Of a stretch of 64,000 nt of DNA, positions 7,239 to 61,482 are shown piece by piece. This DNA comes from Candidatus Binatia bacterium. Lineage in GTDB: Bacteria; Desulfobacterota; Binatia; Bin18. The stretch is from the NCBI GenBank assembly GCA_963664395.2, contig OY761159.2, forward strand, positions 4,128,001-4,192,000, written 5' to 3'. The number at the start of each line of letters is the position of its first letter. Positions within the stretch are counted from its first letter, which is position 1. Below the pieces are notes generated by a model. That model worked only from the letters and a program-made list of their open reading frames with translations. It searched no databases and had not been told where the DNA came from. The translations under genes and the position numbers were made by a program.

Positions 7239-7438
7239 TCGCGAATATCGAGCAATACGAAAAGGCCCAAGCGGAACTGCGTGACTTGGAGGAGCGGCTT
7301 CAGCGTTTACAGCACAACCATCCTCTTGGGGCCAAAGGGTTTACGAAAGCTGGGATTCGGAAAATGATTGCCCGTCTGCATGAAGAGCTTGCCCTGTATG
7401 AGGGCGGCCAGGAAATTGGCCACATTAAACACCCTTAG
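7235..7438 (+). CDS. small helical protein, probable partner of the upstream DUF6932-like gene
   Basis: ATGA overlap with the upstream stop. 67 aa, coiled-coil-like (MIANIEQYEKAQAELRDLEERL). Confidence 0.65.
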   Translation: MIANIEQYEKAQAELRDLEERLQRLQHNHPLGAKGFTKAGIRKMIARLHEELALYEGGQEIGHIKHP

Positions 7439-7482
7439 TCTGTAAAGCCTCTCCTATCCGCGCCGAATACACGCACCCAAAT

Positions 7483-8166: not shown

Positions 8167-8308
8167 GAACCCGTCCGCTCAATGAGGGCTTTCAGCGCGG
8201 TCATGGCTTCGGTGTGTTGAGTTTGGAGTGCGGTCATGGTTTCTTCGTTCTGGGCCTTCTGATCTTCGGACGCTACCCCTAAAGATATCCCAGAGAGGAG
8301 TATTCGTT

Positions 8309-9439: not shown

Positions 9440-9497
9440 CACTCCCTGCCAGGGCGTGCTACATACAGCCGGAGGAGAAAATGAAAGGAGAGAAGAT

Positions 9498-10439
9498 ATG
9501 GCAGAGATACGTGAAATAACCTCCGGCCTGGAATTTCCCGAAGGCCCGATTGCCATGGATGACGGCAGCGTTATCCTGACGGAGATTAAGCGCGGCACGC
9601 TTACGCGGGTCAAGCCGGATGGCACCAAAGAAGTTGTGGCCGAAACGGGTGACGGGCCGAACGGCGCGGCGATTGGACCCGACGGCAAAATCTACGTGTG
9701 TAATAACGGCGGCTTTGAGTGGATCGAAGCCGGTGGGCTGACTGTGCCGCACGGTATCCCTGAAAGCTATACCAATGGCTATATCCAGCGTGTTGATATC
9801 GACACCGGGGCGGTGGAAACGATTTATACCGAGTGCGACGGCAATAAGCTGTGCGGCCCGAACGATATTGTGTTCGATGCTCAAGGCGGCATGTGGTTCA
9901 GCGACTTCGGCAAGATCCGCGACCGCGACCGCGACGTGTGCGGCCTCTATTACGCCAAGACAGACGGCTCGCTCATCAAGGAAGTCGTCTATCCGATCCA
10001 AGGACCGAACGGCATCGGCTTGGCCCCTGGCGATGCGACCCTGTATGCGGCCCAGACCTTTGAAGCCCGGGTGTGGGGCTGGAACATTACCGGTCCGGGC
10101 GAATTGGAGCGCGTGGAAGGGACGGGTGGTCCGCTCCTGGCTGGCCCTGGTGGAGGGGTTCTGGTGGCTGGCTTACCGGGCTATCAACTCCTTGATTCAT
10201 TAGCGGTCGAGGCCAACGGCAACGTGTGTGTGGCGACCATCCTGAATGGCGGCATTAGCGTGTTTGCGCCGGACGGCTCGTCGGTCGAGCATGTGCCCGT
10301 TCCGGGAGACCCGGTGGTGACCAATATCTGTTTTGGTGGCCCGGACCTGAAAACGGCCTATATCACGCTGTCGGGTACGGGCAAGCTGGTAGCCATGGAC
10401 TGGCCGCGTCCGGGCCTGAAGTTGAATTTCACGCGCTAG
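9498..10439 (+). CDS. SMP-30/gluconolactonase/LRE family protein
   Basis: LEFPEGP, GPNG, GPNDIVFD, PNGIGL and VTNICFGG beta-propeller motifs. Confidence 0.92.
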   Translation: MAEIREITSGLEFPEGPIAMDDGSVILTEIKRGTLTRVKPDGTKEVVAETGDGPNGAAIGPDGKIYVCNNGGFEWIEAGGLTVPHGIPESYTNGYIQRVDIDTGAVETIYTECDGNKLCGPNDIVFDAQGGMWFSDFGKIRDRDRDVCGLYYAKTDGSLIKEVVYPIQGPNGIGLAPGDATLYAAQTFEARVWGWNITGPGELERVEGTGGPLLAGPGGGVLVAGLPGYQLLDSLAVEANGNVCVATILNGGISVFAPDGSSVEHVPVPGDPVVTNICFGGPDLKTAYITLSGTGKLVAMDWPRPGLKLNFTR

Positions 10440-10469
10440 GCGTCGCTTTTCGCTTGGCCTCTGGAGGAA

Positions 10470-10489
10470 GGGGGCAGCCGCCTGCCCCC
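10470..10489. terminator. GC-rich hairpin between convergent genes
   Basis: GGGGGCAG-CCGC-CTGCCCCC perfect 8-bp stem. Confidence 0.5.
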
Positions 10490-10494
10490 GCCAT

Positions 10495-10974
10495 TCAGGC
10501 CAGATGCCCGTGGCCGGGCTTGTGATGATGCGCCTCATGCGTCTGCGGACTGGTCGGTCGTACATCTCTGCCTTTCTGGTGGCTCAGGTAGATGCGGCCC
10601 AGAAATTTGACATTGGCGCAAGCGTCAACCTCACCCACATGGCACTCCGCAACGTTTGGAATAAAAAAACGATACGGCCCGCCTTTGTTCTCCGGCAGGG
10701 CCGCATCGTTGAAGCGATAGGCGATAATGCCCTCCTGCACGGCTTCGAGCGGCACACTGGCGGAGAATTTTCCGTCGGTGGACTCCAGGGTGATATAGCG
10801 GACGGTTTCTTTTGGCCCGACCTGCTCCAGTACCGTTTGGAGACGGACGGCGCTGCCTTCTCGGCCGTGAATAAGCCGGCTCACATCCTCAATCTGATCC
10901 GATAGCGCCCGCAGCTCGGAAAACCCAAAGGCGTGGGGCGACCGGACTTCGCCTTCAACGTGTAATCGTGTCAT
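10495..10974 (-). CDS. molybdopterin-dependent oxidoreductase-like domain protein (Oxidored_molyb fold), His-rich tail
   Basis: LHVEGEV...F..SEL, LES.DG.FSASVPL, LP...GGPYR, ANVK.L..I. Confidence 0.7.
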   Translation of the reverse strand: MTRLHVEGEVRSPHAFGFSELRALSDQIEDVSRLIHGREGSAVRLQTVLEQVGPKETVRYITLESTDGKFSASVPLEAVQEGIIAYRFNDAALPENKGGPYRFFIPNVAECHVGEVDACANVKFLGRIYLSHQKGRDVRPTSPQTHEAHHHKPGHGHLA

Positions 10975-11117
10975 GTCTTCTCCTTCGGTTCACAAGAGAT
11001 ATGGTCCGCATTATATCCTGGTCACAGGAGGCCGTCTTGTAGGGCCGAGCGGGCTGTTGACCCTCTACTGCCGGTGGGGCAAGCTGGCGCTCAGGCTGCG
11101 TGGGGAGGAGCACCGAG

Positions 11118-11990
11118 ATGCGGATTATTAGCTGTAACCTGAACGGTATTCGGTCTGCTGCGAGCAAAGGGTTTTTCTCGTGGCTGGAGAAACAAAACGC
11201 CGATGTGGTGTGTGTCCAAGAACTCAAGGCTCAGGAAAAAGATGTCATCCCCACCTATCAAGAAGCCGCGGGCCTGACCGGGACGTTTCACTATGCAGAA
11301 AAGCCGGGTTATTCCGGTGTGGGCATCTATGCCCGGCGGCAACCGGATCGCGTCCGGGTTGGCTGGGGCTGGCCTGACGCGGACCGCGAAGGGCGTTATC
11401 TTCGGGCGGACCTTGGCCGTCTGTCGGTGATTTCAATGTACCTGCCGTCCGGCTCGAGTTCCGAAGAGCGTCAGCGCGTTAAATATCAATTCATGGACAA
11501 GCTCTTGCCGGAGCTGAAAGCGCTGCGCGCCAGTCGCCGCCATGTCGTGCTGTGTGGGGACTGGAATATTGCCCATACCAGGAAGGACATAAAAAATTGG
11601 CGGGGCAATCAGAAGAACTCCGGCTTTCTGCCCGAAGAACGCGATTGGCTGACGCGGGTGTTCGACGAGGTCGGTCTTGTGGATGCGTTTCGACGGGTCA
11701 ACCCGGAAGCGGAACAATATACCTGGTGGTCATTTCGCGGCCAGGCCTGGGCGAAAGACGTGGGCTGGCGGATCGATTACCAAGTGGTCACACCGGGCTT
11801 AGCCAAACTGGCAACGCAGACCGCGATCTACAAGGAAGAACGCTTTTCAGATCACGCCCCGCTGAGTATTGATTACGACTATGCGTTTGACGGTCTAAAG
11901 CCACGCAAACGCGCCGCCGCAGGTTCAAAGGGCGCTCGTTCATCGAAAAATTCCGTAAAGCGGCCTGCCCGGAAGCGTAGGTCGGCTTAA
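11118..11990 (+). CDS. xth: exodeoxyribonuclease III
   Basis: ISCNLNGIR, VCVQELK, GYSGV, CGDWNIAH, YTWWS, GWRIDY, SDHAP. Confidence 0.95.
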   Translation: MRIISCNLNGIRSAASKGFFSWLEKQNADVVCVQELKAQEKDVIPTYQEAAGLTGTFHYAEKPGYSGVGIYARRQPDRVRVGWGWPDADREGRYLRADLGRLSVISMYLPSGSSSEERQRVKYQFMDKLLPELKALRASRRHVVLCGDWNIAHTRKDIKNWRGNQKNSGFLPEERDWLTRVFDEVGLVDAFRRVNPEAEQYTWWSFRGQAWAKDVGWRIDYQVVTPGLAKLATQTAIYKEERFSDHAPLSIDYDYAFDGLKPRKRAAAGSKGARSSKNSVKRPARKRRSA

Positions 11991-12054
11991 CGGAGTGTCA
12001 TCCGACGCCGACCTGAAGACCCTCACCCCAACCCTCTCCCAGAGGGGGAGGGGG
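11977..12054 (+). repeat. composite REP-like element (GTAG-type palindrome plus CCCTCACCCC..CCCTCTCCC..GGG hairpin)
   Basis: GTAGGTCGG...CGGAGTGTCATCCGAC followed by CCCTCACCCCAACCCTCTCCCAGAGGGGGAGGGGG. An inverted, similar copy lies at 52193-52312. Confidence 0.7.
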
Positions 12055-12070
12055 CAAGCAGTAGCCCCGC

Positions 12071-12565
12071 TCAGGCCACTACTTTTTTGCACTCCGCGGT
12101 GACTGTGGCACATGCCTCGGCGGTCTCTATGCAGAGCGGATGGTGGGTATGCTTGCGGCATTCCTGTTCACAGGCGTCATGAACGGCTATGCAGACGGGG
12201 ACAAAGGCTTTGAGTTGAGCGGAATCGGCAGCGGCGAGCACTCCTAGCGCTTCGCTGACCGCGTTCATCTCCTGGATGCGCGCGGCACAGGCGGACAGCG
12301 ACGTATCACCTGTCGCAAACAGGTTCAGACAGTGCTTCAGACACATCGCTCCGATGCCCACACAGGCTTGGGCCGCCAGGACGAGCTCGCGGTGTTTTGG
12401 GGCCGCGTCGTGCTGTGTATGCTCGGCCTGCTCGTGATGGGCGGCCAGGGCTGGAGAGGCCACCAGCCCGGCCAAGGCAGCGCCCGATACGCCTAGCAGG
12501 ACATCGCGCCGTTTGATCGAGGGTGGCTCAGCGGGGGCAGTACCATTCTTCTCGTGTACGTCCAT
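12071..12565 (-). CDS. Tat-exported four-helix-bundle copper storage protein (Csp1/2 type)
   Basis: Twin-arginine signal KRRDVLLG...ALAA, His-rich linker, and regularly spaced Cys (C...G.MC..HC, C...C..H, C...A.AC......C). Confidence 0.85.
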   Translation of the reverse strand: MDVHEKNGTAPAEPPSIKRRDVLLGVSGAALAGLVASPALAAHHEQAEHTQHDAAPKHRELVLAAQACVGIGAMCLKHCLNLFATGDTSLSACAARIQEMNAVSEALGVLAAADSAQLKAFVPVCIAVHDACEQECRKHTHHPLCIETAEACATVTAECKKVVA

Positions 12566-12682
12566 AAATAACTCCTTATACGGTCTATTGTGCGGTCCGC
12601 TTTCGACTCCCGCGAGTCTAGTACACCATACTTTGTCAGCATGGTACTCATACCGAGAGCACGTCAAGGGGAGAACAACACG

Positions 12683-14362
12683 ATGTTGGACCTGTACTCG
12701 GGCATCTGGAGAAGATGCGTTTGGAGTCTGGTTGCTCTGAGCCTGTCTGTGGCTATCGGAGAACGGACGAGCTTTGCGCAAACCCAAGAAGCGACTTCGG
12801 ACTCTGGAGAAGAACTCTCACAACCGGAAGCGGTTGAACTTGAAGACCTGCTCGTCTCGGCCGAACGTATTACCCCTGTCAGCGGAGCGGCGACCGCTCT
12901 GGTGACGGCTGAGCAGGTTCGGGAATATCAGGCCAGGGATGTTGCTGAAGCCCTGAAAAGCAGGGTCCCCGGCGTAACCGGCAAGCGGAGCGGCGGCATT
13001 AATCTTGACCCGATTATTCGCGGGCTGCGTGAAGACCGTTTGAGTGTCATGACCAATGGCACGAAGATATGGGGCGGCGGGCCGTCTCGCATGGACCCGC
13101 CGACCTCGCTGCTGGATGTGGATGAGCTGGAAGCCATCGAAGTGATCAAGGGGCCGTACTCGGTGACGCGGGGTCCGAGCAGTATCGGCGGAACGATCAA
13201 CCTGGTTACCAAGAAACCGGAACTTTCACCGCACTGGGATGCGCACGGTTCGCTTGGCGCGGCCTACACCAGCAATTACAACGGTTTTACCACCAAGGCG
13301 GCGGTCAGTGCCGGGGGGCCCACCCTGGCGTTTCGGCTGGCCGGTAGCTACCGCGATTATCAGGACTATGATTCGGGCGACGGCGAACGTATGCAGTCCG
13401 GGTTTCAGAGCCAATCGGTATCCGGCACCCTGCTGTGGCAACCGCACGCCGCCCATCGTTTGCTGCTGTCCTTGAGCCGGGAATCCGACCAGGATACCCG
13501 TTTCGACGCGCTGCCGCTGCATATGGAAGAAGACGATGCCTATCTCGGCTCCGTATCCTACACCCTCAGCAACCCGTTCCCGTTTGTGGGGAGCCTGCAA
13601 CTCAGCGGCTACTACAATTATGTGCATCATCGCATGAACAATGACCATAAGCCCCATCGGGCCGGAAGTGGTGCCGGTGGAGGTGCGCAGGACGGCTCCA
13701 GTCCCGGTATGCAGGCTGGCTCCGGGCACCCTATCCCGGTCTTGACCCGGAAGAGAGCCTTGAGGTCGATACGGGTATCCACGCCCGGTGGGGCCGATTG
13801 GCTGTGGATGGGGCACTCTTCTACAACAGGATTGAGGACTATATTTTGCAATACGTTCTGGACCGTGACTTCCAGTGCCCGCACGGGTCCGTGCAACCTG
13901 CGCGGCTTTCGCAATATCGATCATGCCACCCTGTTCGGCGCGGATCTGGGCCTGAGCTATGCGCTGCGCGAAAACCTGTCGCTGCACGGCTCCTTTGCGT
14001 ATGTGCATGGAGAAAACGAGGCAGACGACCGGGCGCTCCCCGAAATTCCTCCTTTGGAGGGTCAGCTCGGACTGCGCTACGAGCATCCGCGCTGGGATCT
14101 CTGGTTCAACCCGATGCTTCGTCTCGTCCAGAGCCAGCATCGGGTTGATAGCGCGTTCGGCGAAGACGCGACGCAGGGGCATGTGACGGTTGATATCGGA
14201 GCCGGCTGGCGACTATTCGGGCGTCACGAACTGATGCTGCGTGTCGAGAACCTGTTCGATAAAAACTATAACGAGCATATCACCCGGGAGAATCCGTTTA
14301 GCGGCAGGGAAGTGTTCGAGCCCGGACGGGTGGTGACGGTCGGCCTGTGGACAACGTTTTAA
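12683..14362 (+). pseudogene. TonB-dependent copper receptor (OprC-like) with internal deletion and double frameshift
   Basis: Plug motifs DPIIRG, RMDPPTS, IEVIKGP...GGTINLVTK and C-terminal VENLFDKNY...EPGR. Barrel segment PGLDPEESLEVDTG...FYNRIEDYI is encoded in a different frame (13735-13886). Confidence 0.75.
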
Positions 14363-14467
14363 TCTTTTATGGATTTTCTAATAAAATAAGCATCTTAGCC
14401 CGACACTCCTCGAAAGTTGTATAACTCGCTGCTTGGTGTTAGGATGATCTTAGTTGAGTAGCTGCCC

Positions 14468-17400
14468 ATGTGGTGGGGTGGTGGTGGGAGGTGGTTTGTG
14501 GCACTGGGTATCAAGACGGTCCTTCGCTCGCTACGAGTGATGGGAGAGCAGGGGAGACCCCCCGTCTCCCTGGGTGTGAAAAGACATCAGCCCAATTCGG
14601 CATTCCGGGCTGAGAAACAAGGCCGGGCTCATTCGGCCAGAGATGTGACGGCGCGGCGCGCCTCACCCTCACTCCCTTCAATTAACATATTTGGCCCTAT
14701 CTGCCCGCTGCTACGCGCGTGGCTGCTGGGGGTGCTCCTGTTGTTGGGCGGGTCCGTCCACGCCCAGGAAACAGAGAACCAGCCACCGGTGGTGGAATAT
14801 CAGCTGTTTCCCGAGTGGCTGCGGATGGGAGTGTCGGATGCGGTGTCGGTAGGGTATGGGTTCGAGGATCCGGACGACGACCCGTTGACCTATACGGCAA
14901 GCTCGGACAACGAGGCGGTCGTCGAAGTAGAGAGCGTGATGGATAATGTCGTGACGCTCATGCCAAAGGTTATCGGCACGGCAACCATCACAGTGACGGC
15001 GACCGACACGGGTGGGTCAAACACCAGCGTGGAACAGGATTTCACGGTGACGGTCCTGCGCAACTACGACACCGACAGTGACGGACTGATCGAAATCACA
15101 ACCCTGGCGCAGCTTGACGCCATACGCCATGATCTGGATGGGGACAGCAGACCGGCATACGGTACAGACACGGCGTACGCCGAGGCGTTCCTCGAGGGGG
15201 GGGTGACCGAGCGGGGGAGGCTCACCTGCAGCGGTGCCTGCAAGGGATATGAATTGAAGGCAGACCTCGACTTCTTCGACACCAACGAGGATGGCCAAGT
15301 CGATACGAACGATGACACCAACGGGGACGGTCAGGTCGATGCGGAAGACAACACTACCTACTGGAACGAGGGCGCCGGCTGGATGCCTATCGGCGAGGAC
15401 GGCGCGTTCTCGACGACCTTCGACGGCAACGGACACACCATCCGCAACTTGTTTATCAAGCGGGAGGACGCTTTCGCCACAGGATTAGCGGTGGGATTAT
15501 TCAACCAGATCGACTCGCCAGGCGAGCTGCGCAATGTCGGAGTGATTGATGTCGATGTAACGGGCGGAAAGCTCGTTGTGGGCGGGCTGGTTGGATCGAT
15601 CAGCAGCGGCGGCAGCATCACCGCCAGCTATGTCACCGGTCGGGTGGTGGGAATGCACAATATAGTCGGCGGGCTGGCCGGAGCGAACAACAGCGGTAGC
15701 ATCACCGCCAGCTATTTCACCGGGCACGTGGAGGGTAAGGGCACCGCGGTCGGCGGGCTGGCCGGAACAAGCAGCGGCCGCATCACCGACAGCTATGCCA
15801 CCGGCCAGGTGGTGGCGAATTCCCATGCCGGCGGGCTGGTCGGAATAAGCAGCGGCCACATCACTTCTAGTTACTCCACGGCCTGTGTGGTGGTGGGCAA
15901 CAACGATGCCGGCGGCCTGATCGGAGCGAACAGAGGCAGCATCACCTCCAGCTATGCCACCGGGCCCGTGGCGGGAAGGACCCGGGTCGGCGGGCTGGTC
16001 GGATGGAATGAGGGCAGCAACAGTAGCATTACTGCCAGCTATGCCACGGGCCATGTGATGGGTAATACCTGGGTCGGCGGACTGGTCGGGAGCAATGAGG
16101 GAACCATCACCGCCAGCTATTGGGATACGGATACCTCCGGGAGGGACGTGGGAGTCGGTACGGACGATGCGGACGATAACGGCATCATTGACGGCACGGA
16201 ATCGCAAACAGCCGGCGTGGCGGGCAAGACCACGGCGCAGTTGCAGGAACCCACAGACTACACCGGTATTTATGACACCTGGAACGACATGGATCTGGAT
16301 GGCGACGGCAATAACAACGCCCCTTGGGACTTCGGGGAAGACGACGAATATCCGGTGCTGCTGGTGGATTTCGACGGGGATGAGACGGCGACCTGGCAGG
16401 AGTTCGGCTATCAGTTTCGAGAAAGCATGGTGCTGACGGCGACGATGCCTCTCGAAGGCGTGGCTCGGGTGGACTTGGCGTGGACCGAGGTAGCGGTGGA
16501 TCACTGGGACCCCGAACCGGACGTGACCTACATCCTTTTGCGCGACGACGGGACCACCGTCGAGACCCTGTCGGAGAACACAGCGGCAGGTGACTACTCC
16601 GACCTCAGTGTGGTCCCCGGTTCCACCTACACCTATCGGGTAGCGGTCGTCGTGATGGGTAGCGAAACGACATGCACCGGAGTGAGTGTCACCATACCAG
16701 CAGACGCGAACCGACACCCGCAGGTGTCAGAGGAGTTAGACGACCTGCCGTTGCAAGTGGGGCAGCCGGATTACGAAGTGGATGTAGATGAAGTATTTGA
16801 GGACCCAGACGGCGATACGTTGACCTACGGGGCAACCTCGTCCGCCGATACCGTCGTCGAAGTAGTAAGCGTGACAGGGACCATGGTGACGCTCCGGCCA
16901 CTAGCCGTCGGTACGGCGACTATCACGGTAACGGTGACCGACACGGGTGGATTGAGCGCGACGCAGCAGTTCCTGGTGACAGTCACGTCGCCACCGCCAC
17001 CGGATACGAACACGCCGCCACCGGATACGAACACGCCGCCACCGGATACGAACACGCCGCCACCGGATACGAACACGCCGCCACCGGATACGAACACGCC
17101 GCCACCGGATACGAACACGCCGCCACCGGATACGAACACGCCGCCACCGGATACGAACACGCCGCCACCGGATACGAACACGCCGCCACCGGATACGAAC
17201 ACGCCGCCACCGGATACGAACACGCCGCCACCGGATACGAACACGCCGCCACCGGATACGAACACGCCGCCACCGGATACGAACACGCCGCCACCGGATA
17301 CGAACACGCCGCCGCCTAACAGCGGCTCTCTCGGTCCTGGAAGCAGGAGTGTTAGCAGAGCCTCTACTCAACGCTCGCCGGCCGGACACTTGGAGATTCC

Positions 17401-52402: not shown

Positions 52403-54043
52403 ATGCCGACCCTGGACTTCAAAGGCAAACAGATCGTCTATGCCCATCATCTGACCGTTCCTGCGCGGACGCTGGAGGTGGATGCCGAAAAGTCGTTGCC
52501 ACCCGAAGACCAACAGCCGTCTCTTGACGACAACCTGATTATTCACGGCGACAACCTGCACGCCCTCAAGGCGCTCATGCCGCGCTATGCCGGACGGGTG
52601 AACTGCATCTACATTGATCCGCCCTACAACACTGGCAACGAAGGCTGGGCGTACAACGACAACGTGAACAGCCCGCTGATGCAGGAATGGCTGAAAGGCA
52701 AAAGCCCGGTGGACGGCGAAGACCTGGAGCGCCACGACAAGTGGCTGTGCATGATGTGGCCGCGGCTGCACCTGCTGCGTGAACTACTGGCCGAAAACGG
52801 GGCAATTTTCGTCTCCATTGACGATAACGAGCAACACCATCTGCGGATGATGATGGATGAAATTTTCGGCGCAGAGAATTTCGTCGCGACAATCATTTGG
52901 GAGAAGGTTTATTCGCCGAAGAGCAGTGCGCAATACTTCTCAGAAAATCACGATTTTATCGTCGTGTATGCCAGAAACAAGAATGAGTTCAAACTCGGAC
53001 TGCTCCCACGAACGGAAGAAGCCGATGCGCGCTATACCAACCCTGACAACGACCCGCGTGGACCATGGAAATCGGGTGGCCTCGACGCACGCAATCCATA
53101 CAGCAAAGGGATATATTCAATAAAATGTCCAGGTGGCCGTGTGGTAAAAGGACCTCCACCTGGTAACTTTTGGCGTTACTCGGAGGAAAATTTTTGGGAA
53201 TTGGACAGGGACAATCGAATTTGGTGGGGCGAGGATCAGAACCAAGTCCCGGCTATTAAGCGCTTTCTCTCCGAGGTAAAACAAGGCTTGGTGCCAGAGA
53301 CCATCTGGACATATAAGGAGGTCGGTCACACCCAAGATGCGAAGAAAACGCTCCTTCAGATTTTTCCAGAAAAATTTCCAGACTTTACGACAACCAAGCC
53401 TGTTAAATTGCTAACCCGGATCATTAGTCTCTCGACAGGCGAAGACTCCATCATCCTCGACTCTTTTGCGGGCACCGGCACGACGGCCCAGGCGGCCTTG
53501 GCGCTCAACAAAGAAGACGGCGGCAACCGTAAATTCATCCTGGTAGAGTGCGAAGATTACGCCGCCACCATCACCGCCGAGCGCGTGCGCCGCGTCATCA
53601 ACGGCATTCCGACGGCGAAGGACGAAAGCCTGAAAAACGGGCTGGGCGGCAGCTTCACCTATTGCACGCTGGGCGAAGAAATCAACCCGGAAAAAATGCT
53701 CACCGGCGACAACCTGCCGGACTACGACACCCTGGCCCGCCACCTCGTCTACACCGCCACCGGCCACGCGCCGGACAACATCCGCAAAGCACGAAGCAAG
53801 GACGGCCTTTTCCATGAAACGGACGACCGGCTGTTCTATCTGATCTACCAGCCGGACCTTGACTTCCTGCGCAGCGCCGACTCCGTCCTGAACAGCGACC
53901 GTGCCGAACGCATCGCCAAGCAGGCCAAGACCAAGCATAAAACCGCGGTCGTCTTCGCCACCCACAAGTTCATGGGCCAGAAGGAGTTGACGGGCATGGG
54001 GATTGTGTTTTGCGGGTTGCCGTATGTAAGCCTCTCAGGCTAA
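52403..54043 (+). CDS. mod: type III restriction-modification methyltransferase (Mod)
   Basis: MPTLDFKGK, IHGDNL, IYIDPPYNTG, HDKWLCMM.PRL, KPVKLL, LDSFAGTGTT. Confidence 0.93.
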   Translation: MPTLDFKGKQIVYAHHLTVPARTLEVDAEKSLPPEDQQPSLDDNLIIHGDNLHALKALMPRYAGRVNCIYIDPPYNTGNEGWAYNDNVNSPLMQEWLKGKSPVDGEDLERHDKWLCMMWPRLHLLRELLAENGAIFVSIDDNEQHHLRMMMDEIFGAENFVATIIWEKVYSPKSSAQYFSENHDFIVVYARNKNEFKLGLLPRTEEADARYTNPDNDPRGPWKSGGLDARNPYSKGIYSIKCPGGRVVKGPPPGNFWRYSEENFWELDRDNRIWWGEDQNQVPAIKRFLSEVKQGLVPETIWTYKEVGHTQDAKKTLLQIFPEKFPDFTTTKPVKLLTRIISLSTGEDSIILDSFAGTGTTAQAALALNKEDGGNRKFILVECEDYAATITAERVRRVINGIPTAKDESLKNGLGGSFTYCTLGEEINPEKMLTGDNLPDYDTLARHLVYTATGHAPDNIRKARSKDGLFHETDDRLFYLIYQPDLDFLRSADSVLNSDRAERIAKQAKTKHKTAVVFATHKFMGQKELTGMGIVFCGLPYVSLSG

Positions 54044-54093
54044 CCTGATATTTGACCATCTTCTATAGCCTGAACGGAATAATGATATAGGTT

Positions 54094-55230
54094 ATGTACG
54101 ATATTGAGAAATATAGTGAAGCAATAGGGGCGTCTTCCCCGCCTCCATCGCGCTGGGCTAACTCTTGTACGCATCGAGAGTGCTCATTGCATCAACTGTC
54201 ACCGTACATAGGGAAACTGAAGAGTGTGATTGCGCGGGACCTCATCCTTGAGTACAGCCAGCCTGGCCAGTTAGTAGTGGATATGTTTTGTGGAAGTGGC
54301 ACCGTGCCACTTGAGGCCGCTCGTCTTGGCCGACGTGTATTCGCTTCTGATATGAGCAGATACGCTGTGACGCTGACCAAAGGTAAGCTTTACGCACCAA
54401 CCAGAATCGAACCTGCACTCGCAGACCTTGATCGGCTTCTCAAACGTGTTGAATCACTGCCCATGCCAGACCTTCGAAGCGTTCCGCGATGGGTTCGAGC
54501 TTTTTTTCACCCCCGTACGTTGAAAGAGGCCCTACGTCTCAACGAATTTCTTAGACACGAAAGGCATTATTTCCTACTGGCCGCCCTGCTCGGCATCCTG
54601 CATCATCAAAGGCCTGGATTCCTATCCTTTCCAAGCAGTCACCTTGTGCCCTATCTTCGGTCAAACAAATTCCCCAGAGAAGTCTATCCCGACCTTTACG
54701 AATATCGTCCAGTTGCCCCGCGTTTGAAAGCAAAGGTCAAACGTGCTTTGAAGCGCCCATCCGCAAATTCTTTATTCAAATTAGTCGAGGGTATTCGCCG
54801 GTCCTCTGTAGAACATCTTAACCTCCCGGATGCCATTGATTGTGTCATCACCAGTCCGCCCTACATGAACGCGCTTGACTATGGGCGCGACAACCGTCTA
54901 CGGCTCTGGTTTTTGGGTGAATCGCATATGAAGTCGCTGGACCGTGCTCTTAGCGGTCTCAACAGCTTTACAAATGCGATAGATGCACTTGCCAGACAAT
55001 TACAGCAAAAAATGCGCCGGGGTGGTTATTGTGTCTTCGTCATTGGTGAGCAGTTGATTCGGAAGAAAGACCGATTTCCTTCTGAAGAGTTGATGAGGAT
55101 TTTCGCAACACATGCCCCGACATTTCAACTGTGTCAGGTCATGAGTGACGTTATTCCCGATGTACGCCGCTCACGGAGGCGACTCGCCGGAGTTAAGCGA
55201 GAGCATATCCTGGTATTTAGAAAGCACTAA
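54094..55230 (+). CDS. DNA amino-methyltransferase, motif I then SPPY (probable N4-cytosine)
   Basis: LHQLSPYIGK, VVDMFCGSGT..LEA...GR, VITSPPY, GGYCVFVIG, EHILVF. Confidence 0.85.
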   Translation: MYDIEKYSEAIGASSPPPSRWANSCTHRECSLHQLSPYIGKLKSVIARDLILEYSQPGQLVVDMFCGSGTVPLEAARLGRRVFASDMSRYAVTLTKGKLYAPTRIEPALADLDRLLKRVESLPMPDLRSVPRWVRAFFHPRTLKEALRLNEFLRHERHYFLLAALLGILHHQRPGFLSFPSSHLVPYLRSNKFPREVYPDLYEYRPVAPRLKAKVKRALKRPSANSLFKLVEGIRRSSVEHLNLPDAIDCVITSPPYMNALDYGRDNRLRLWFLGESHMKSLDRALSGLNSFTNAIDALARQLQQKMRRGGYCVFVIGEQLIRKKDRFPSEELMRIFATHAPTFQLCQVMSDVIPDVRRSRRRLAGVKREHILVFRKH

Positions 55231-55232
55231 AA

Positions 55233-57701
55233 ATGCGAAAAAACCTTCCGCCTGTAGAACTGTTCCTTGGAAGAACAATAGATAGATTTCCAAACCATGT
55301 GATTCAAGAACATGTCGGTTCAGGCTCTAATGGACATCTATTTCGGGCATTCGATCCATCAACCGAAAGTAAACTCGCGTTTAAAGTCGTTCCAGTCGAG
55401 AATCTGTTAGTCAACGATCTGTTAGATGACGAAGACAAGCGACAAACCTATTTAGATGAGGCAAAGAAAGCAAACCTTCTACAACATGCATCGGTTATTA
55501 AGTGCCATAATGTTGTGTCTTATCGCGATCCCGATAATTCAATAGGGTGCATTATTTTTGTGTATGACTATGTGGAGGGCAAGAATCTCCAGGATTACAT
55601 ACGGCAGCACAGCGCAGAGGTAAACGTATCGTTTGCGGAGACCTTTCTGCGGACAATGCTTGAATTATTATATGAGCTCAAACAGCGCGGATACCCGCAT
55701 GGTGACTTGCACGCTGGAAATGTGCTCGTTGCGAAGTCGGAATTCGATATTTATGGAAGAACGATCTTTCGTGTAACAGATTTTGGCGTCCGCGAATTGA
55801 CCGAACATAGCGCTGATGTAAGTGACTATCTTTCTGTCGCACAAACACTCAGACAGCTACTAGGCTGCGTAGAGTATCGGGACTGTGAAGGGCGAGACCG
55901 ATATGTCTACAATATCCTGAAGCAGGATTTCTTGGCCCGACATTTAATTGAAACTGATACTAGTGCAGATCCATTGGCCTGCAATCCTCAGAAACTGATG
56001 GCTAAACTGGATTCTTTAGATAGTCAATATGTTGAAAAGAAATCTTCCGTCTCTGCACTTTTGACGCCTTTCGATTACCCTAACTGTGAACAAATTGGAA
56101 ACTCTCATCTATTGCTTAAGAATCTCTACTCCGATCGTCTACTTGGACTGTCGGAGATTCAGGCAAGAGTTAATTTAATGCTAACCGGGCCTCGCGGATG
56201 TGGCAAAACTACCGTTTTCCGTGCCCTGAGCCTGGAATATTTAATTTCTAATAACGATGACGCACCAAGCCACATTAACTATATTGGCATCTATTATAGA
56301 TGTGACGATCTGTATTTCTCTTTTCCAAGATATAAGATTCCTGAACGCCTTGAAGCACTCGACGTCCCCATGCATTTCCTGACGGTCACACTACTGGCAA
56401 CTGCTTTGGAACAGATAGGGGCATGGGCAAAAAGGCATTTCCTAGATGAGTTTCAAAAAAAAGAGAATTCGCTTGTTGCAGAACTTTGGGATTTGTTTGG
56501 ATGGCCACGTCCAGACAATCCAAGTGCCGGACAGTTGGCTACTCTGGTTAACCGGTTAAAAGGTAGGGAGAGGAAGCGTGCAGCCGAGAAACAACGTTTC
56601 GTTCATGTACACACAGAACCTATCCAAGACTATTTTGGTCCAGAAATGCTACTCAAAGCCTGTCTCCTTATTCGGAACAAATTTTCATTCCTGTATGAAC
56701 GGCCTTTTTATTTTTTTATTGATGACTACTCTGATCCAAAAATTACTAAAGAATTACAATCAAATCTCAATCGATTGCTCATGTATCGCAGTCCCGATAT
56801 CTTTTTCAAAATCTCGACAGAGAGTCCAATCTCTTTTGCTCGGGATGATGTCGATGGAAAACAATTTATCGAAACTCGCGAATATGATCTGTTAAATATC
56901 GGATTAAGGTACATCATGCATGCCTCAAATCAAACGCTTGAATTTCTTGAGGATCTTTTCCGGCGTCGATTTGGGGAGGTTGAAGGATACCCCGTTCAGA
57001 CTTTAAGAGAGCTTTTAGGCTCTACACCGCGTAATGAAAACGCCACGGCCTGGGCCTTTCGAGAGAAGAAGGGGCGGGAAAACTATGCGGGTATTGAGAC
57101 TGTTGCTGCCATGTGTAGTGGTGATATCCACTATATTATTCGTCTTGTTGCCAGGATGGTGGAAGATCGTGGAGGCCGAGATTCTCTAAAGATATCCCAG
57201 ACAGCACCTCGGATACTGCCAAGCCAACAACACAATTCTATCCGTGCCGCGGCAGGAGCTTTTATGGATTCTATACGCACGCTACCCGGAAAAGGTCGGC
57301 AACTTACGGAGGTTGTGACAGCATTCGGCAACGTGGCTCATTCTTACCTTCTGTATGAAACATCGACCAATGAGGGACGTAAACTCCCTCATCAAGCATC
57401 AAGGATAGAGCCATATGAATCGATAGATATATCTGACGAGGCCCAAGAAATTCTTAACGAGCTATTGCGTTACTCAGTGCTCATTGAAGACCCTCGTGGA
57501 AAGAGTAGGCGGGGAAAGGTTGTACCTAGGTTCTACCTTCGACGTTACTTGATCCCTCATTTCCGTTTGACGTTCAGTAGGCGAGATTCTCTTCAATTGG
57601 AAAATAACCAGATCGAAACACTCCTGCGTGACCCTCAAAAGTTTGAGACTACGATGAGTCGGGGTGATCCAAATCAAGAGAAACTTTTTCCTAATGAATG
57701 A
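55233..57701 (+). CDS. Ser/Thr protein kinase fused to a P-loop ATPase (ORC/CDC6-like)
   Basis: Kinase: VGSGSNG, LAFK, alphaC Glu (YLDEA), HGDLHAGN, TDFG. ATPase: LTGPRGCGKTT (Walker A), FFIDDY (Walker B), FKISTE. Confidence 0.85.
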   Translation: MRKNLPPVELFLGRTIDRFPNHVIQEHVGSGSNGHLFRAFDPSTESKLAFKVVPVENLLVNDLLDDEDKRQTYLDEAKKANLLQHASVIKCHNVVSYRDPDNSIGCIIFVYDYVEGKNLQDYIRQHSAEVNVSFAETFLRTMLELLYELKQRGYPHGDLHAGNVLVAKSEFDIYGRTIFRVTDFGVRELTEHSADVSDYLSVAQTLRQLLGCVEYRDCEGRDRYVYNILKQDFLARHLIETDTSADPLACNPQKLMAKLDSLDSQYVEKKSSVSALLTPFDYPNCEQIGNSHLLLKNLYSDRLLGLSEIQARVNLMLTGPRGCGKTTVFRALSLEYLISNNDDAPSHINYIGIYYRCDDLYFSFPRYKIPERLEALDVPMHFLTVTLLATALEQIGAWAKRHFLDEFQKKENSLVAELWDLFGWPRPDNPSAGQLATLVNRLKGRERKRAAEKQRFVHVHTEPIQDYFGPEMLLKACLLIRNKFSFLYERPFYFFIDDYSDPKITKELQSNLNRLLMYRSPDIFFKISTESPISFARDDVDGKQFIETREYDLLNIGLRYIMHASNQTLEFLEDLFRRRFGEVEGYPVQTLRELLGSTPRNENATAWAFREKKGRENYAGIETVAAMCSGDIHYIIRLVARMVEDRGGRDSLKISQTAPRILPSQQHNSIRAAAGAFMDSIRTLPGKGRQLTEVVTAFGNVAHSYLLYETSTNEGRKLPHQASRIEPYESIDISDEAQEILNELLRYSVLIEDPRGKSRRGKVVPRFYLRRYLIPHFRLTFSRRDSLQLENNQIETLLRDPQKFETTMSRGDPNQEKLFPNE

Positions 57702-58758
57702 CGACACATTTAACAATAACTTGCTAAGACCAGATGAAAAATTAAGCAGGGCCGAGTGGCCAGATCTGCAAGAGATCGAGTTCCCTTCAGTGGGAACTGG
57801 CGACTGTTTGCTGGTATGTGCTGGATTTGAAGACCGTGCTATCGAAACTCTACGTCGAATCTGTGAATCGGGAAGAACAGGCTTCCCACTTGGCATAGTA
57901 AACTATCTTCCAATCTACCCAGAAAATAAAATCGAAGAGCTACGTACAATTGGTCGAAGTGCTGATCTCCAGGTAAATGAGTTTTCTTACAACCGCGAAA
58001 ATCCCACAGGTATTGGAGAAGAACTAAAACGATTCACGCAGGACTTTGAACATCTTTTTATTGATATTTCTGGCATGTCACGTCTCCTCATCGTGCAGAC
58101 ATTGGTAGCGTTAATCGGCGGACAAAGGCAGCCGTTAAGCCTAATCTATGGCGAAGCAAAAGAATACCCACCTTCTAAAGATCAATTTGAGCAAGATGAC
58201 ACGAATGATGACGCCAAGTCGGTGCCGAGTTACCTGTCATCTGGAATTTTTGAAATAGCAGCGACCCCTGAATTGGGTTCTGTATCCATGTTGGGCGAGG
58301 CGATCCGGCTGGTAGCATTTCCATCATTTGACCCCGCTCAGCTCACTAATTTGCTTCAAGAGCTGCAACCTGCTTACACGGAACTTATTCATGGTGTACC
58401 TCCAGTTAAAGAGAATGAATGGCGAAAGGATGCAATCCGTAAACTTAACCGTCCGACATTAGATGAGCTTCAAGAGAAAAAAGATCATGAGGCGTCTACG
58501 CTTGACTACAGAGAGACATTACATGCGCTACTCCAGATATATGCAAAACGCAGCATGTTTGATCGCATCGTAGTTGCTCCTACCGGCAGCAAGATGCAGG
58601 CTGTAGCCGTGGGCCTGTTTCGGTCGGTCCTTCATGATGTCCAAATTGTCTATCCTACGCCACAGATTTTCACAGCACCCCAAGAACATACTATAGGTCT
58701 TCGGCAACTGTATAAGGTTGATATTCCAATAGAGGCAATAATAATGCGGCCGGATTGA
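57694..58758 (+). CDS. hypothetical protein with two Rossmann-like (CARF-like) repeats
   Basis: Repeat 1: LLVCAGFEDRA...FIDISGMSR...LIY. Repeat 2: LVAFPSFD...IVVAPTGSK...IVYP. The start overlaps the stop of the kinase-ATPase gene. The fold call is by eye. Confidence 0.65.
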   Translation: MNDDTFNNNLLRPDEKLSRAEWPDLQEIEFPSVGTGDCLLVCAGFEDRAIETLRRICESGRTGFPLGIVNYLPIYPENKIEELRTIGRSADLQVNEFSYNRENPTGIGEELKRFTQDFEHLFIDISGMSRLLIVQTLVALIGGQRQPLSLIYGEAKEYPPSKDQFEQDDTNDDAKSVPSYLSSGIFEIAATPELGSVSMLGEAIRLVAFPSFDPAQLTNLLQELQPAYTELIHGVPPVKENEWRKDAIRKLNRPTLDELQEKKDHEASTLDYRETLHALLQIYAKRSMFDRIVVAPTGSKMQAVAVGLFRSVLHDVQIVYPTPQIFTAPQEHTIGLRQLYKVDIPIEAIIMRPD

Positions 58759-58914
58759 GGACTTTCGGTGAGAGGCTATTGGCCTTCAAAGCCTCAAGTT
58801 TGGGATTGTTTCGAGATTACAATGATAAATCGGATGATTCAGATAATAGCTATCCAAGAAGCTGCCTCATCTGGAGAACATATCAAGGATTCCTTACGCC
58901 GCAGATAGGGTGAC

Positions 58915-61482
58915 GTGCAACTCAAAACCTACCAGCAAAACGCCCTCGACCAACTCGACCGCTGGCTTGAAGCACTCAAGGAAGCCCGGCTGAAATGTGA
59001 GAAAGCCACGAAGGCGCTCGAAGAGAGCGGCGTTGATGTTCCCGAGGAACTAAAAAATTATCCCCTGGCTGCCTGGAAAAACCTCAAAGAGCAAAACGTC
59101 CTTCCTGCCGTCCAGAATCAAGACGGAAAATCCGAAGTCCCCGACTACATCCCCCGAACCGCGACCTCCGGTGAGCCTGCCCCGCATGTCTGCCTGAAAA
59201 TCCCGACCGGAGGCGGCAAGACGCTGCTGGGCGTTGCCGCGCTCGAACGTATCAAGCAGGACACGGGCTTTGTGCTGTGGATCGTGCCGACGCGGGCGAT
59301 CTATGATCAGACGCTCAAGGCGTTCAGAACCCGCGAACACCCGTACCGGCAAATGCTCGAAAGAATTTCCGGCGGCAAGGTCAAACTATTGCAGAAGGAC
59401 GACCGCTTTACCCGACAAGATGTTGAAAGCCGGCTGTGCATCATGATGCTGATGTTGCCGTCCGCTAACCGGCAAAAGGGCAAGGACTTTCTCAAGATAT
59501 TCCGGGACAGTGGCGGGTATACCTCCTTCTTCCCGGAACAGGATGACATGACCGCCAACCGTGAGCTTTCAGAACAACTCCCCGACCTGGAGAAGAACCG
59601 CAGCGGCGATTGGGTCAAGCAAAGCCTGATTAACGTCCTGAAGCTCATCCGTCCGACCGTGATTCTGGACGAGGCGCACAAAGCCTATGGGCCGAATGAC
59701 AAAAACAATCGGGAGTTCGTCAAGTCCGTCAACCGCCTTAATCCCCGCTTCGTGCTCGAACTGTCCGCTACGCCGAAAATTGGTATCAGCAACATCCTGG
59801 TCAACATCTCGGGAACTGAGCTTCAGGCCGAGGAGATGATAAAGCTGCCCATAGAGGTCCACAGCTTCACCAATTCCGACTGGAAGCATGCGCTCGCCGA
59901 AACGCAGAAAAGAGTAGAGCAACTGGAAGAGGAAGCGCGGCAACTCCAATCGAGAGAAAACCGCTATGTCCGTCCCATCGCTCTGGTACGGGTGCAACGA
60001 ACGGGCAAGGAGCAAAGGGGCCAGGGAAACATTCATTCCGAGGACGTGCGCGAATACCTGATACGGAATCTTGCCGTACCGGAGGCGTGGATACGGGTGC
60101 AGTCGTCCGAAACCAAGGAACTTGGGCACGAAGATTTATTGAGCGAACACAGCCTCGTCCGCTGGATTCTGACAAAAGACGCGCTTAAAGAGGGCTGGGA
60201 TTGCTCGTTTGCATATGTGCTGGCCCTGCTGGATAACACCACGGCAACGACCGCCATGACGCAAATGGTGGGGCGGATCATGCGCCAGCCCTACGCCCGA
60301 AGAATTGAGACAAGTAAGGCCCTGAACCAGTGTTATATCTACTGTTACAACAAGGACGTGGGCAAGGCGGTTGAGGGGGTGAAAGCCGGGCTGGAAAACG
60401 AGGGGCTGACGGGCTTGGGCGATGCGGTTCGCGGCTACAGCACAGGAGACGCCCCGAAGCCGATAACCGTCCGGCGTCGCGGCACCTATAGCACACTCAA
60501 AATTTTCCTTCCTCGGGTTCTGCACAGAAAGGGGAAAGGCTGGCGTCCGATTGATTACGACCGCGACATCTTGAGCGCTGTGAGCTGGGGCGCGATTGAA
60601 GTGGGCGGGGCGGTGGATCTGGACGACGAAGACACCATGCGGGAGATCATCGCCACGGTTGACGTTCAGGGTGGGGGCAGCGTCTCTGACGAGGCTTTTG
60701 AGACCGGTGAACGATTGAGCCTTGACTATTTTGTCCGGCGACTCACGGACATTGTGCCTAATCCGTGGCAGGCGGCACGCATAGCAGAGAGCTTTCTGCA
60801 CAAGCACGAGAGCAAGGGACACAACGGGTCAAAACTGCTGAGCAACCGGGTGTATCTCTCGGAAGTATTGAGACGCCGGGTGAAAGAGGACATCGACGCA
60901 AAAGCCGAAGCGGTTTTCCACAGTAAGGTAAAGAGAGATGAGATACGGTTTCAGCTTGAGACTGGTGAACGGCTGAACTATGAGTTGGGCCGGTCGTTTG
61001 AAGTGTTTGCATCCAAGGAGGAGAGAATCCTTCAGGGTGAGCACGCCAGCCAAATACAACGCAGCCTGTTCGAGCCCCTTTTTGAAAGCGGATTCAACGG
61101 TCTGGAAAAGGACTTTGCGCTGTATCTGGAAAAGAGCAACGCGATATATTGGTGGCACAGAGTAGCCGCACGGCAGGACTACTATCTACAAGGCTGGCGA
61201 CGCCAGCGGGTATACCCCGACTTTGTGGCCTGCCGCAAAGACGATGGAAAGCTGCTGATCCTGGAAACAAAAGGTATTCACCTGAAAGGAAGCGACGACA
61301 CAGGCTACAAGAAAAAGCTGCTTGAGACCCTTGAAGAGGCATACTCAACCGCCTCTGAGAGAGGACAAATGAGAATCGGCAAGCCGTCGGCTACCTTCAG
61401 GATGATGTTTGAGGAAAGGTGGAAGGGACAGGTCAGTGAACTGCTGAACGAGACATATCGGAAAGGCCAGCGATGCGTGTAG
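58915..61482 (+). CDS. res: type III restriction endonuclease subunit (Res)
   Basis: LKTYQ, KIPTGGGKT, ILDEAH, LELSATP, LKEGWD, QMVGRIMR, C-terminal YPDF...LETKG nuclease. GTG start. Confidence 0.93.
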   Translation: MQLKTYQQNALDQLDRWLEALKEARLKCEKATKALEESGVDVPEELKNYPLAAWKNLKEQNVLPAVQNQDGKSEVPDYIPRTATSGEPAPHVCLKIPTGGGKTLLGVAALERIKQDTGFVLWIVPTRAIYDQTLKAFRTREHPYRQMLERISGGKVKLLQKDDRFTRQDVESRLCIMMLMLPSANRQKGKDFLKIFRDSGGYTSFFPEQDDMTANRELSEQLPDLEKNRSGDWVKQSLINVLKLIRPTVILDEAHKAYGPNDKNNREFVKSVNRLNPRFVLELSATPKIGISNILVNISGTELQAEEMIKLPIEVHSFTNSDWKHALAETQKRVEQLEEEARQLQSRENRYVRPIALVRVQRTGKEQRGQGNIHSEDVREYLIRNLAVPEAWIRVQSSETKELGHEDLLSEHSLVRWILTKDALKEGWDCSFAYVLALLDNTTATTAMTQMVGRIMRQPYARRIETSKALNQCYIYCYNKDVGKAVEGVKAGLENEGLTGLGDAVRGYSTGDAPKPITVRRRGTYSTLKIFLPRVLHRKGKGWRPIDYDRDILSAVSWGAIEVGGAVDLDDEDTMREIIATVDVQGGGSVSDEAFETGERLSLDYFVRRLTDIVPNPWQAARIAESFLHKHESKGHNGSKLLSNRVYLSEVLRRRVKEDIDAKAEAVFHSKVKRDEIRFQLETGERLNYELGRSFEVFASKEERILQGEHASQIQRSLFEPLFESGFNGLEKDFALYLEKSNAIYWWHRVAARQDYYLQGWRRQRVYPDFVACRKDDGKLLILETKGIHLKGSDDTGYKKKLLETLEEAYSTASERGQMRIGKPSATFRMMFEERWKGQVSELLNETYRKGQRCV

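Follow-up and report, generated by a model that had tools for sequence, protein, structure and literature searches.

We analyzed a 64,000-nucleotide (nt) window of a Candidatus Binatia bacterium genome (assembly GCA_963664395.2, contig OY761159.2, positions 4,128,001 to 4,192,000; genome G000 in our set, 95.9% complete), in which the mod and res genes of a type III restriction-modification (RM) operon enclose three co-oriented genes. These encode a predicted DNA methyltransferase (gene 1), a fusion of a predicted Ser/Thr kinase to an AAA+ ATPase (gene 2), and a tandem-CARF protein (gene 3) (Table 1). The original prediction for this DNA had proposed the trio as a candidate new defense cassette, and our open reading frame (ORF) listing reproduced the coordinates of mod, res, and all three genes between them. 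The tight coupling described there was also confirmed, with a 2-nt gap between genes 1 and 2 (55230/55233) and an 8-nt overlap between genes 2 and 3 (57694-57701) when gene 3 is read from its ATG; the gene 3 frame is also open from a GTG at 57664, which would give 364 amino acids (aa). As proposed, the cassette is AT-richer than its host operon: in 600-nt windows, guanine-plus-cytosine (GC) content is 0.42-0.47 across 55000-58900 vs 0.55-0.59 for most of mod and res.

Table 1. Features of the type III RM locus and its cassette in the window, and of related loci on other contigs
Feature	Position	Strand	Description
mod	52403-54043	+	546 aa; type III RM methyltransferase, intact, with variable central target-recognition block
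Left junction of cargo slot	54027-54093		blastn against L058, L059, and L060
Gene 1	54094-55230	+	378 aa; predicted N6/N4-type DNA methyltransferase
Gene 2, whole ORF	55233-57701	+	822 aa
Gene 2, kinase domain	55233-56042	+	residues ~1-270; Hanks-type Ser/Thr kinase
Gene 2, ATPase and C-terminal part	56148-57701	+	residues ~306-822; ORC/Cdc6-like AAA+
Gene 3	57694-58758	+	354 aa from ATG; stand-alone tandem-CARF protein
Right junction of cargo slot	58759-58915		blastn; homology resumes at 58916, in the first bases of res
res	58915-61482	+	855 aa; type III RM helicase-nuclease, intact
HEPN-like gene directly after mod	L058 8239-8919	-	
HEPN-like gene directly after mod	L059 6464-7159	+	
HEPN-like gene directly after mod	L037 3632-4312	+	
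Split variant of the trio	L062 2736-9915		plasmid pBq66S1MBc of a cultured strain; Mrr_cat endonuclease gene ~1.1 kb upstream; thyX follows

The three genes form a conserved unit. A scan with gene 2, taking one genome per species, returned 35 loci, in which the trio was checked by tblastn with the five window proteins. In 31 of the 35, genes 1, 2, and 3 follow one another closely in this order, and the other four loci are truncated by contigs that start inside gene 2 (L022, L030) or end inside it (L024, L031); the gene arrangement is therefore not due to chance. When 572 ORFs from the 35 loci and the window were clustered all-vs-all, only the three trio families occurred in more than six loci, leaving no conserved fourth gene, and the identities of the three proteins drop together from locus to locus. 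The co-occurrence of homologs that the original prediction had proposed as a check was thus found, and its description of a self-contained module stands, the three genes being co-inherited. Host lineages include Nitrospirales, several Gammaproteobacteria, Alphaproteobacteria, Acidobacteriota, Latescibacterota, Spirochaetia, Verrucomicrobiae, Desulfobacterota-type lineages, Clostridia, and two Bathyarchaeia.

The trio also exists with its parts divided differently. A plasmid of Bradyrhizobium quebecense 66S1MB carries a split four-gene form consisting of a methylase, a 246-aa kinase, a 652-aa ORC-CDC6-like ATPase, and a tandem-CARF protein, the last of which aligns with gene 3 at an hhalign probability of 100% (E 7.4e-49); the record of this plasmid labels its three non-methylase genes hypothetical. 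At the other extreme, the PADLOC model PDLC01925 ("CARF6--CARF_STK_AAA," 1187 positions) is matched by gene 2 at positions 330-734 (E 1.6e-24) and by gene 3 at positions 863-1170, which implies that a fused form exists. As judged from these profiles, split and fused forms keep the same parts.

The trio is horizontally mobile, patchy within its order and phylum yet spread over many phyla, archaea included. Only 2 of 56 genomes in the window's order carry it: the window genome itself and G001, a member of the same genus whose trio is 46-53% identical (49% with the gene 2 ATPase as query) and lies at another locus. Of 401 genomes sampled from the phylum, 3 match the gene 3 profile. Compared with its flanks, the trio is richer in AT in 29 of 31 evaluable loci, one of which is the window (exceptions, L026 at +0.043 and L032 at 0.000). 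Across the 35 loci, a transposase or integrase is not linked to the trio as a rule.

Gene 1 is a predicted N6/N4 DNA methyltransferase. Pfam PF01555 covers only the motif I piece (residues 46-95; 46.6 bits, cutoff 26.7), and the PADLOC model MTase_II PDLC03325 matches at E 3.8e-19. The motifs stand in permuted order, with motif I (D63-x-F65-x-G67) preceding motif IV (S254-P-P-Y257), and residues D63, F65, G67, S254, P255, and Y257 are invariant in 32/32 homologs; the middle region is 0.54 identical over these 32 and contains a long run of invariant residues. Its closest solved relatives by sequence, at weak E-values, are N4-cytosine and MboIIA-type enzymes. In one metagenome-assembled genome (MAG) of 73% GC, from Vicinamibacterales, the methylase frame stays open for ~1000 codons upstream, giving an ORF of 1366 aa (L005 5899-9999); the extension has no Pfam match and is either a real fusion or a high-GC artifact.

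The N terminus of gene 2 matches Pfam Pkinase (E 9.8e-15) and, across 29 sequences, keeps the catalytic loop H156-G-D158-L-H-A-G-N163 and the D183-F184-G185 motif; H156, D158, N163, D183, and F184 never vary, K51 and E76 reach at least 90% conservation, and the first 30 residues contain no Cys. A fold search with the gene 2 model, whose whole-model matches are dominated by the kinase domain, returned Staphylococcus aureus PknB at Z 18.8 (root mean square deviation [rmsd] 3.1, 223 residues aligned). At the domain level this kinase resembles defense kinases, matching PADLOC PD-T4-6 models to E 5.4e-16 and mad6 at E 1.5e-17. The ATPase part belongs to Pfam PF24389, ORC-CDC6-like (175.5 bits, cutoff 27; E 2.5e-51), with an arginine in the P-loop of its Walker A motif (G-P-R-G-C-G-K-T) and a Walker B motif at D497-D498; G319, R321, G322, C323, G324, K325, D497, and D498 are all invariant. 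Residues 590-822 were assigned to the ORC-CDC6-like family by features, as a lead only, and the helix/strand pattern of the model suggests a winged-helix-like C-terminal end. A word-indexed search with residues 300-822 gave 720 matches named at most "protein kinase" or "hypothetical protein," and comparison of the same residues with the sequences of solved structures gave nothing below E 0.019. With kinase residues, Walker A and B, and methylase motifs I and IV all invariant, the enzymes of the trio look active as far as their sequences can tell. A 277-aa ORF sits within the gene 2 homolog of L027, and at loci where gene 2 is broken the methylase is intact wherever the contig covers it.

Gene 3 has no Pfam or NCBIfam match. 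Its structural model, built from an alignment of 32 homologs (predicted local distance difference test [pLDDT] score, 90; predicted template modeling [pTM] score, 0.92), contains two Rossmann-like domains at residues ~36-155 and ~200-345. In an unfiltered VIA-align comparison with 48,161 chains, the best match was Can1 (6sce_A; Z 15.0, rmsd 4.5, 244 aligned), followed by Card1 (Z 12.7), Can2 (11.6), Csa3 (11.6), and then Csm6, Cam1, and VC1899. The top 22 matches are all CARF or SAVED proteins, with SAVED at Z 8-9 and unrelated Rossmann folds starting at Z 8.6. Foldseek alone placed tandem universal-stress proteins first by E-value, at a template modeling (TM) score of 0.24 vs 0.48 for Can1. 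The CARF signature, [DN]X[ST]XXX[RK], in which a basic residue closely follows strand 4 (PMC4012209, accessible text), is recognizable in domain 1, where strand 121-124 leads into D124-I-S126-G-M-S-R130 (D124 invariant, S126 and R130 at least 90% conserved). Domain 2, in which strand 290-295 is followed by P-T297-G298-S-K300 with an invariant K300, fits the signature only partly because the basic residue comes one position early. The PADLOC model PDLC01917 matches gene 3 at E 2.5e-15 over 13-285 of 308, as do six more CARF6--CARF_CARF_CARF models down to E 9e-6; the PADLOC CARF6 models carry no curated cutoff. By its predicted structure, gene 3 is a tandem-CARF fold protein of the CARF superfamily and a sensor-type protein. 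The profiles, the invariant motifs, and this fold match bear out the functional calls of the original prediction for all three genes, namely, a methyltransferase, a kinase with P-loop ATPase, and a double-CARF-like protein.

Tandem-CARF relatives are numerous. Among 1.84 billion representatives scanned by HMMER, the gene 3 profile matched 1241 clusters (50% identity) at E ≤0.001 and 298 at E ≤1e-30, almost all of them stand-alone proteins of ~350 aa. The same scan revealed two rare fusions of tandem CARF, one to a histidine kinase (P0229) and one to a calcineurin-like metallophosphoesterase (P0191), which fit a tandem CARF serving as a portable input domain. A word-indexed search for longer fused relatives found none, which is weak evidence. 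The window genome additionally holds the relic of a second tandem-CARF gene (L063 8436-8972; G000:C1, ~766436-766972), which comprises the C-terminal half only, is 47% identical to gene 3 and 56% identical to the L029 copy (profile E 4.3e-60), and has no adjoining methylase or kinase-ATPase.

Complex prediction for gene 2 residues 300-822 with gene 3 scored 0.52, vs 0.00 for the best control, and lends weak support to an interaction. In the benchmark, 58 of 80 solved complexes attained the mark, compared with 2 of 110 mismatched pairs; only 7 of the 80 solved complexes, and both mismatches that passed, scored ≤0.60. At least 75% of contacts agree between the gene 2/gene 3 runs, with a partner pLDDT of at least 79.

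The operon that hosts the cassette in the window appears complete. By profile coverage, mod and res are full-length type III RM enzymes: Mod matches the PADLOC type III methyltransferase PDLC03644 over 1-541 of 542 (E 1.4e-172) and Pfam N6_N4_Mtase (E 8e-42), and Res matches the PADLOC type III restriction enzyme PDLC03653 over 1-879 of 883 (E 1.3e-214) as well as Pfam ResIII. Among six mod-trio-res loci, Mod identity is 0.41-0.56 over residues 161-360 vs 0.77-0.92 at the ends. Between the window and G021, nucleotide homology in mod is missing only in the central part (52972-53441), a sign of a swapped target-recognition domain, and the window Mod therefore probably differs in specificity from its closest relative. 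A promoter scan found 9 sites where 9.1 were expected, and a terminator scan found 11 where 11.6 were expected; the best promoter-like match (58718-58745) lies just upstream of res and is not evidence of a promoter because the scan count is at expectation, and the two scans carry no information on transcription units. The window genome also encodes a second, distant type III-like Res paralog (G000:C1:374009-375133, minus strand; 36% identity over residues 89-487), similar copies of which are present in many relatives.

The gap between mod and res behaves as a slot for exchangeable cargo. Nucleotide homology of the window to its same-genus relatives G021, G007, and G002 ends at 54026-54027, near the 3' end of mod, and returns at 58916; a search for direct or inverted repeats gave only short chance pairs of low identity, none of them at the two junctions. 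Res matches at E ≤1e-50 occur in 20 of the 56 genomes of the order, and orthologs at 84-95% identity occur in eight other genomes of the family (G021, G007, G004, G002, G008, G032, G034, G020), six of them in the window's genus. Five of these eight (G004, G008, G020, G032, and G034, at 84-89% identity) have a stop-interrupted or split Res, implying that this type III RM system decays often in the family. In G021 (L058), G007 (L059), and a metagenome contig (L037), the mod-res gap measures 1.9-3.4 kb and holds other cargo in place of the trio. At all three it opens with a protein of 226-231 aa that has weak HEPN_RiboL-PSP matches (20.8-24.5 bits, cutoff 28.4) and that is a possible RNase back-up within the type III RM operon. 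On L037 this gene is followed by a ParE toxin and "Unstab_antitox" antitoxin pair (4320-4894) and then by a 562-aa TPR protein. An IS1595 transposase (L002) or a TPR protein (L021) can also lie between mod and the trio. These different cargoes in the gap of relatives indicate that it is a slot, of which the trio is one occupant. The assumption in the original prediction that mod and res are normally adjacent accordingly fails for this RM lineage, and the empty site sought there did not turn up: we found no relative with mod directly adjoining res, in a search whose metagenome scan for Res gave one locus only.

Outside this slot, the trio keeps varied company. Besides the window, five of the 35 loci (L001, L002, L007, L008, L021) have type III mod and res around the trio; the remaining 30, of which 26 contain the whole trio, lack a surrounding type III RM system. 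In L001, from a Nitrospirales MAG (2166-15618), mod and an intact res lie upstream of the trio and a second res, in two pieces, lies downstream, an arrangement that points to RM copies having duplicated or recombined around the cassette. At four loci (L003, L006, L015, L016) a DUF1156 methylase gene directly follows the trio; at three of these (L003, L006, L015) an SNF2-type helicase with an NOV_C domain precedes it, and in L003 a DUF499 ATPase follows, in a cluster that includes an L006 gene. The Pfam run was made on L003 members, with the neighbors in L006, L015, and L016 assigned by BLAST cluster. In L006, each end of the trio shares a 4-nt start/stop codon overlap with the adjoining gene, as does the downstream end in L003. 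Such helicase-DUF1156 sets have been termed "type-1 BREX-related" (PMC12839542, accessible text). Elsewhere, HsdM-HsdS-HsdR lies directly upstream of the trio in an Enterobacteriaceae MAG (L012), a 1774-aa Mrr_cat_2 helicase adjoins it in L004, an SNF2/DUF3670 protein lies downstream in L019, and a methyltransferase-HNH protein lies upstream in L009 and L010. By a raw count among annotated neighbors, ~half of the evaluable loci have a restriction-like neighbor, in agreement with the expectation that such genes often adjoin the cassette. In L020 the trio adjoins a BlaR1-type peptidase.

PrrC is an accessory gene embedded in a type I RM system. By analogy with it, the trio might be a guard or back-up that monitors the host restriction system and fires its kinase when a phage inhibitor blocks that system, a role that we regard as quite unlikely. 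It would fit the nesting between mod and res, the position directly upstream of the DUF1156 methylase of a second, unrelated methylation-based system with its helicase and its codon overlaps, and the place directly after HsdM-S-R in L012. Relatives, moreover, have the HEPN-like gene in this slot, and such genes are often interpreted as abortive back-ups, though the matches there are weak and fall below the cutoff. Yet the host systems are mutually unrelated, which makes a specific protein-protein guard hard to picture; ~half of the loci have no restriction-like neighbor among annotated genes; a methylase of its own would be superfluous for a pure guard; and G001, within the same genus, keeps its trio at another locus. 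The original prediction had raised a back-up role for the RM system; an obligate role of this kind is unsupported because 30 of 35 loci, including 26 that hold the whole trio, stand outside type III RM operons. The trio resembles accessory genes of restriction operons in being co-oriented inside another methylation-based system, in a slot reused by other cargo, and differs from PrrC-type cargo in comprising three genes with their own methylase and in lying outside such operons at most loci. Back-up effectors are also described inside BREX (bacteriophage exclusion) and BREX-related loci (PMC12839542, accessible text).

We also weighed membership in a system that already has a name, which we consider very improbable. 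One candidate is Pgl (phage growth limitation), or BREX type 2, in which the accessible text of PMC12839542 lists the PglW kinase, the PglX methylase, the PglY/BrxC ATPase of the ORC/Cdc6 clade, and PglZ, with no classical restriction nuclease. Like that system, the trio joins a DNA methylase, a Ser/Thr kinase, and an ORC/Cdc6-clade AAA+ ATPase, also with no classical restriction nuclease. Unlike Pgl/BREX, it has no PglZ, BrxA, BrxB, BrxD, or BrxH and adds a CARF sensor; its ATPase part is ~520 aa and fused to the kinase, compared with the 1200-aa BrxC, and its 378-aa methylase has no variable recognition domain. PglZ and BrxC/PglY are absent among the PADLOC matches listed for the five proteins (for gene 2, 25 of 28 families). 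Given these absences and the lack of a fourth conserved gene, we rejected BREX/Pgl membership.

A methylation-linked system with a kinase (MAD6), a methylase (MAD2), and an ATPase is also found in the methylation-associated defense system (MADS) of Pseudomonas aeruginosa, an eight-gene operon in which MAD6, MAD7, and MAD8 are mandatory (10.1101/2023.03.30.534895, accessible text). Gene 2 matches mad6 and, weakly and over 36 residues, mad8 (E 1.9e-4), and gene 1 matches mad2 (E 4.1e-9); the kinase likeness holds at the domain level. The NCBIfam MAD6 model NF047741 reaches only 27 bits on gene 2, against a cutoff of 460 and over the kinase domain only, MAD7 is not among the listed matches, and the trio has three genes in place of eight and a CARF protein that MADS does not have. 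With no fourth conserved gene either, membership in MADS was rejected.

CARF proteins, finally, are typical partners of type III CRISPR systems (PMC4012209, accessible text), so that an ancillary CRISPR effector also had to be considered. Gene 3 resembles Can1 (PDB 6sce), a type III CRISPR nuclease, in having two CARF domains in one chain as a pseudo-dimer; unlike Can1, it has no nuclease domains, its sequence identity to Can1 is 11%, and the window genome gives no Cas10 match. Searches of that genome with the Csm1/Cmr2 models TIGR02578 and TIGR02577, for which 6 and 5 of 14 control genomes were positive, returned nothing, and no conserved cas-like neighbor occurs in the 35 loci; this candidate was likewise rejected.

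Part of the combination has been seen before. The accessible text of Makarova et al. (2014; PMC4012209) describes fused proteins with a Zn-ribbon, a Ser/Thr/Tyr kinase, an AAA+ domain with Arg in the P-loop, a CARF domain, and a domain of the winged helix-turn-helix (wHTH) type, and proposes that CARF acts in a kinase-mediated signal path. The trio follows these fusions in its order of kinase, AAA+ with an Arg in Walker A (the invariant R321), and CARF. It departs from them, as they appear in that text, in that its CARF is a separate gene, tandem and with no wHTH, gene 3 ending after the second CARF domain; in that there is no Zn ribbon; and in that a conserved methyltransferase gene always precedes the kinase-ATPase. 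The same text makes no mention of the methylase link, a wide split form, or nesting in restriction operons. The PADLOC "CARF6--CARF_STK_AAA" and "CARF6--CARF_CARF_CARF" models appear to cover the same family as these fusions. We take the CARF6 names to come from the 2020 CARF census. The view in the original prediction that the combination is unnamed therefore holds in that PADLOC, NCBIfam, and the searched literature contain no matching named system, and does not hold in full, given the CARF6 models for genes 2 and 3 and the kinase-AAA+-CARF fusions noted in 2014. The kinase-AAA+-CARF link and PADLOC models for two of the three genes are thus already known. A full-text literature search, with the 2020 CARF census and supplements outside it, found no description or test of the methylase, kinase-AAA+, and CARF trio and no prior account of its constant methylase, its common split form, its archaeal spread, or its use of cargo slots in two unrelated methylation systems, any of which may be partly in print.

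On balance, we somewhat favor reading the 4.7-kb insert as a module of three genes, self-contained and horizontally mobile, that acts against phages or plasmids and is carried as cargo in the variable mod-res slot. A conserved mobile module with intact enzymes and a CARF sensor, often residing in restriction operons, suggests defense by phosphorylation. In such a scheme, the methyltransferase would put a fixed, protective mark on host DNA, and gene 2, through its ORC/Cdc6-like AAA+ part and probable winged-helix end, would survey DNA in an ATP-dependent manner. The tandem-CARF protein would bind the gene 2 product and sense a nucleotide-type ligand. The AAA+ part and its CARF partner would respond to foreign DNA, a nucleotide signal, or both and together switch on the fused Hanks kinase, whose phosphorylation of host or phage proteins would stop the infection or the cell.

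A number of observations weigh against this interpretation. The module contains no nuclease or other classical effector, so that the kinase has the effector role by assumption. In 5 of the 35 loci (L008, L011, L027, L031, L035) gene 2 is found split or in decay, which may reflect a cost of the kinase, decay, or MAG assembly errors. Gene 1 is evenly conserved, at 0.70-0.90 identity along the protein in the six mod-trio-res loci, so its predicted mark is probably identical everywhere, and it is usually the best conserved of the three proteins. As far as its sequence indicates, it has no variable target-recognition block, unlike the methylases of specificity-diversifying RM and BREX systems; a simple self/non-self model does not explain this uniformity, which leaves room for a role of the mark unlike that in RM. 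In none of the 35 loci is the trio linked to a cyclase capable of producing a ligand for CARF, and the absence of Csm1/Cmr2 matches in the 95.9% complete window genome bears on the same point. The other ~half of evaluable loci have no restriction-like neighbor among their annotated genes, and in L025 the trio sits among cadherin-like surface proteins. The genes flanking the RM operon in the window are of housekeeping types (cupin, MetE-like, Fe-S assembly, hydrolase, nitroreductase, and LeuA-like), syntenic with G002, and are not a large defense island. Finally, a search of 50,697 phage records found no copy, and one of 72,556 plasmids found a single distant copy.

Some of these features would suit a selfish addiction unit, with the methylase as antidote and the kinase-ATPase as toxin, or a phospho-signaling unit with an orphan methylase, in either case with no primary anti-phage benefit. 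The distribution is patchy and mobile-looking and the GC content low, the methylase is invariant with no variable recognition block, and the kinase-ATPase is broken in five loci where the methylase is whole, as expected if the toxin is lost first; the fusion of CARF relatives to a histidine kinase points to general signaling use. Against this stand the recurrence of the trio inside restriction-like operons, the domain-level resemblance of its kinase to defense kinases (PD-T4-6, mad6), and the lack, as a rule, of a linked transposase or integrase. Addiction and defense are not mutually exclusive, and as a replacement for defense we judge this explanation unlikely.

To our knowledge, CARF sensors are understood almost only as receivers of type III CRISPR cyclic oligoadenylates. 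The trio places a well-conserved tandem CARF beside a kinase/ATPase and a methylase with no linked cyclase in 35 loci, and, if the module is defensive, this raises the question of which ligand reports infection outside CRISPR and CBASS (cyclic oligonucleotide-based antiphage signaling systems). One bolder answer, which we consider doubtful, is a CARF pathway independent of both: a nucleotide signal made with neither Cas10 nor a CD-NTase would reach the tandem CARF and pass through the AAA+ switch to the Hanks kinase, and the methylase of fixed specificity would define "self." Candidate sources of the signal are the phage, damaged RNA ends, and the kinase/AAA+ partner itself. If true, this would be a new class of immunity in which epigenetic marking, the sensing of a second messenger, and protein phosphorylation are combined; it would be common to Bathyarchaeia and many phyla of bacteria and suited to insertion into other restriction operons.

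Material for tests is at hand in the split variant on the plasmid of a cultured Bradyrhizobium and in the L012 version from an Enterobacteriaceae MAG. The trio offers a three-gene model for the methylase, kinase, and ORC/Cdc6-ATPase logic of BREX, Pgl, and MADS, which is poorly understood, and it would show how phosphorylation acts as the output. The mod-res gap and the helicase-methylase gap of DUF1156/DUF499 systems emerge as reusable cargo slots, and searching them is a practical route to further accessory immunity genes.

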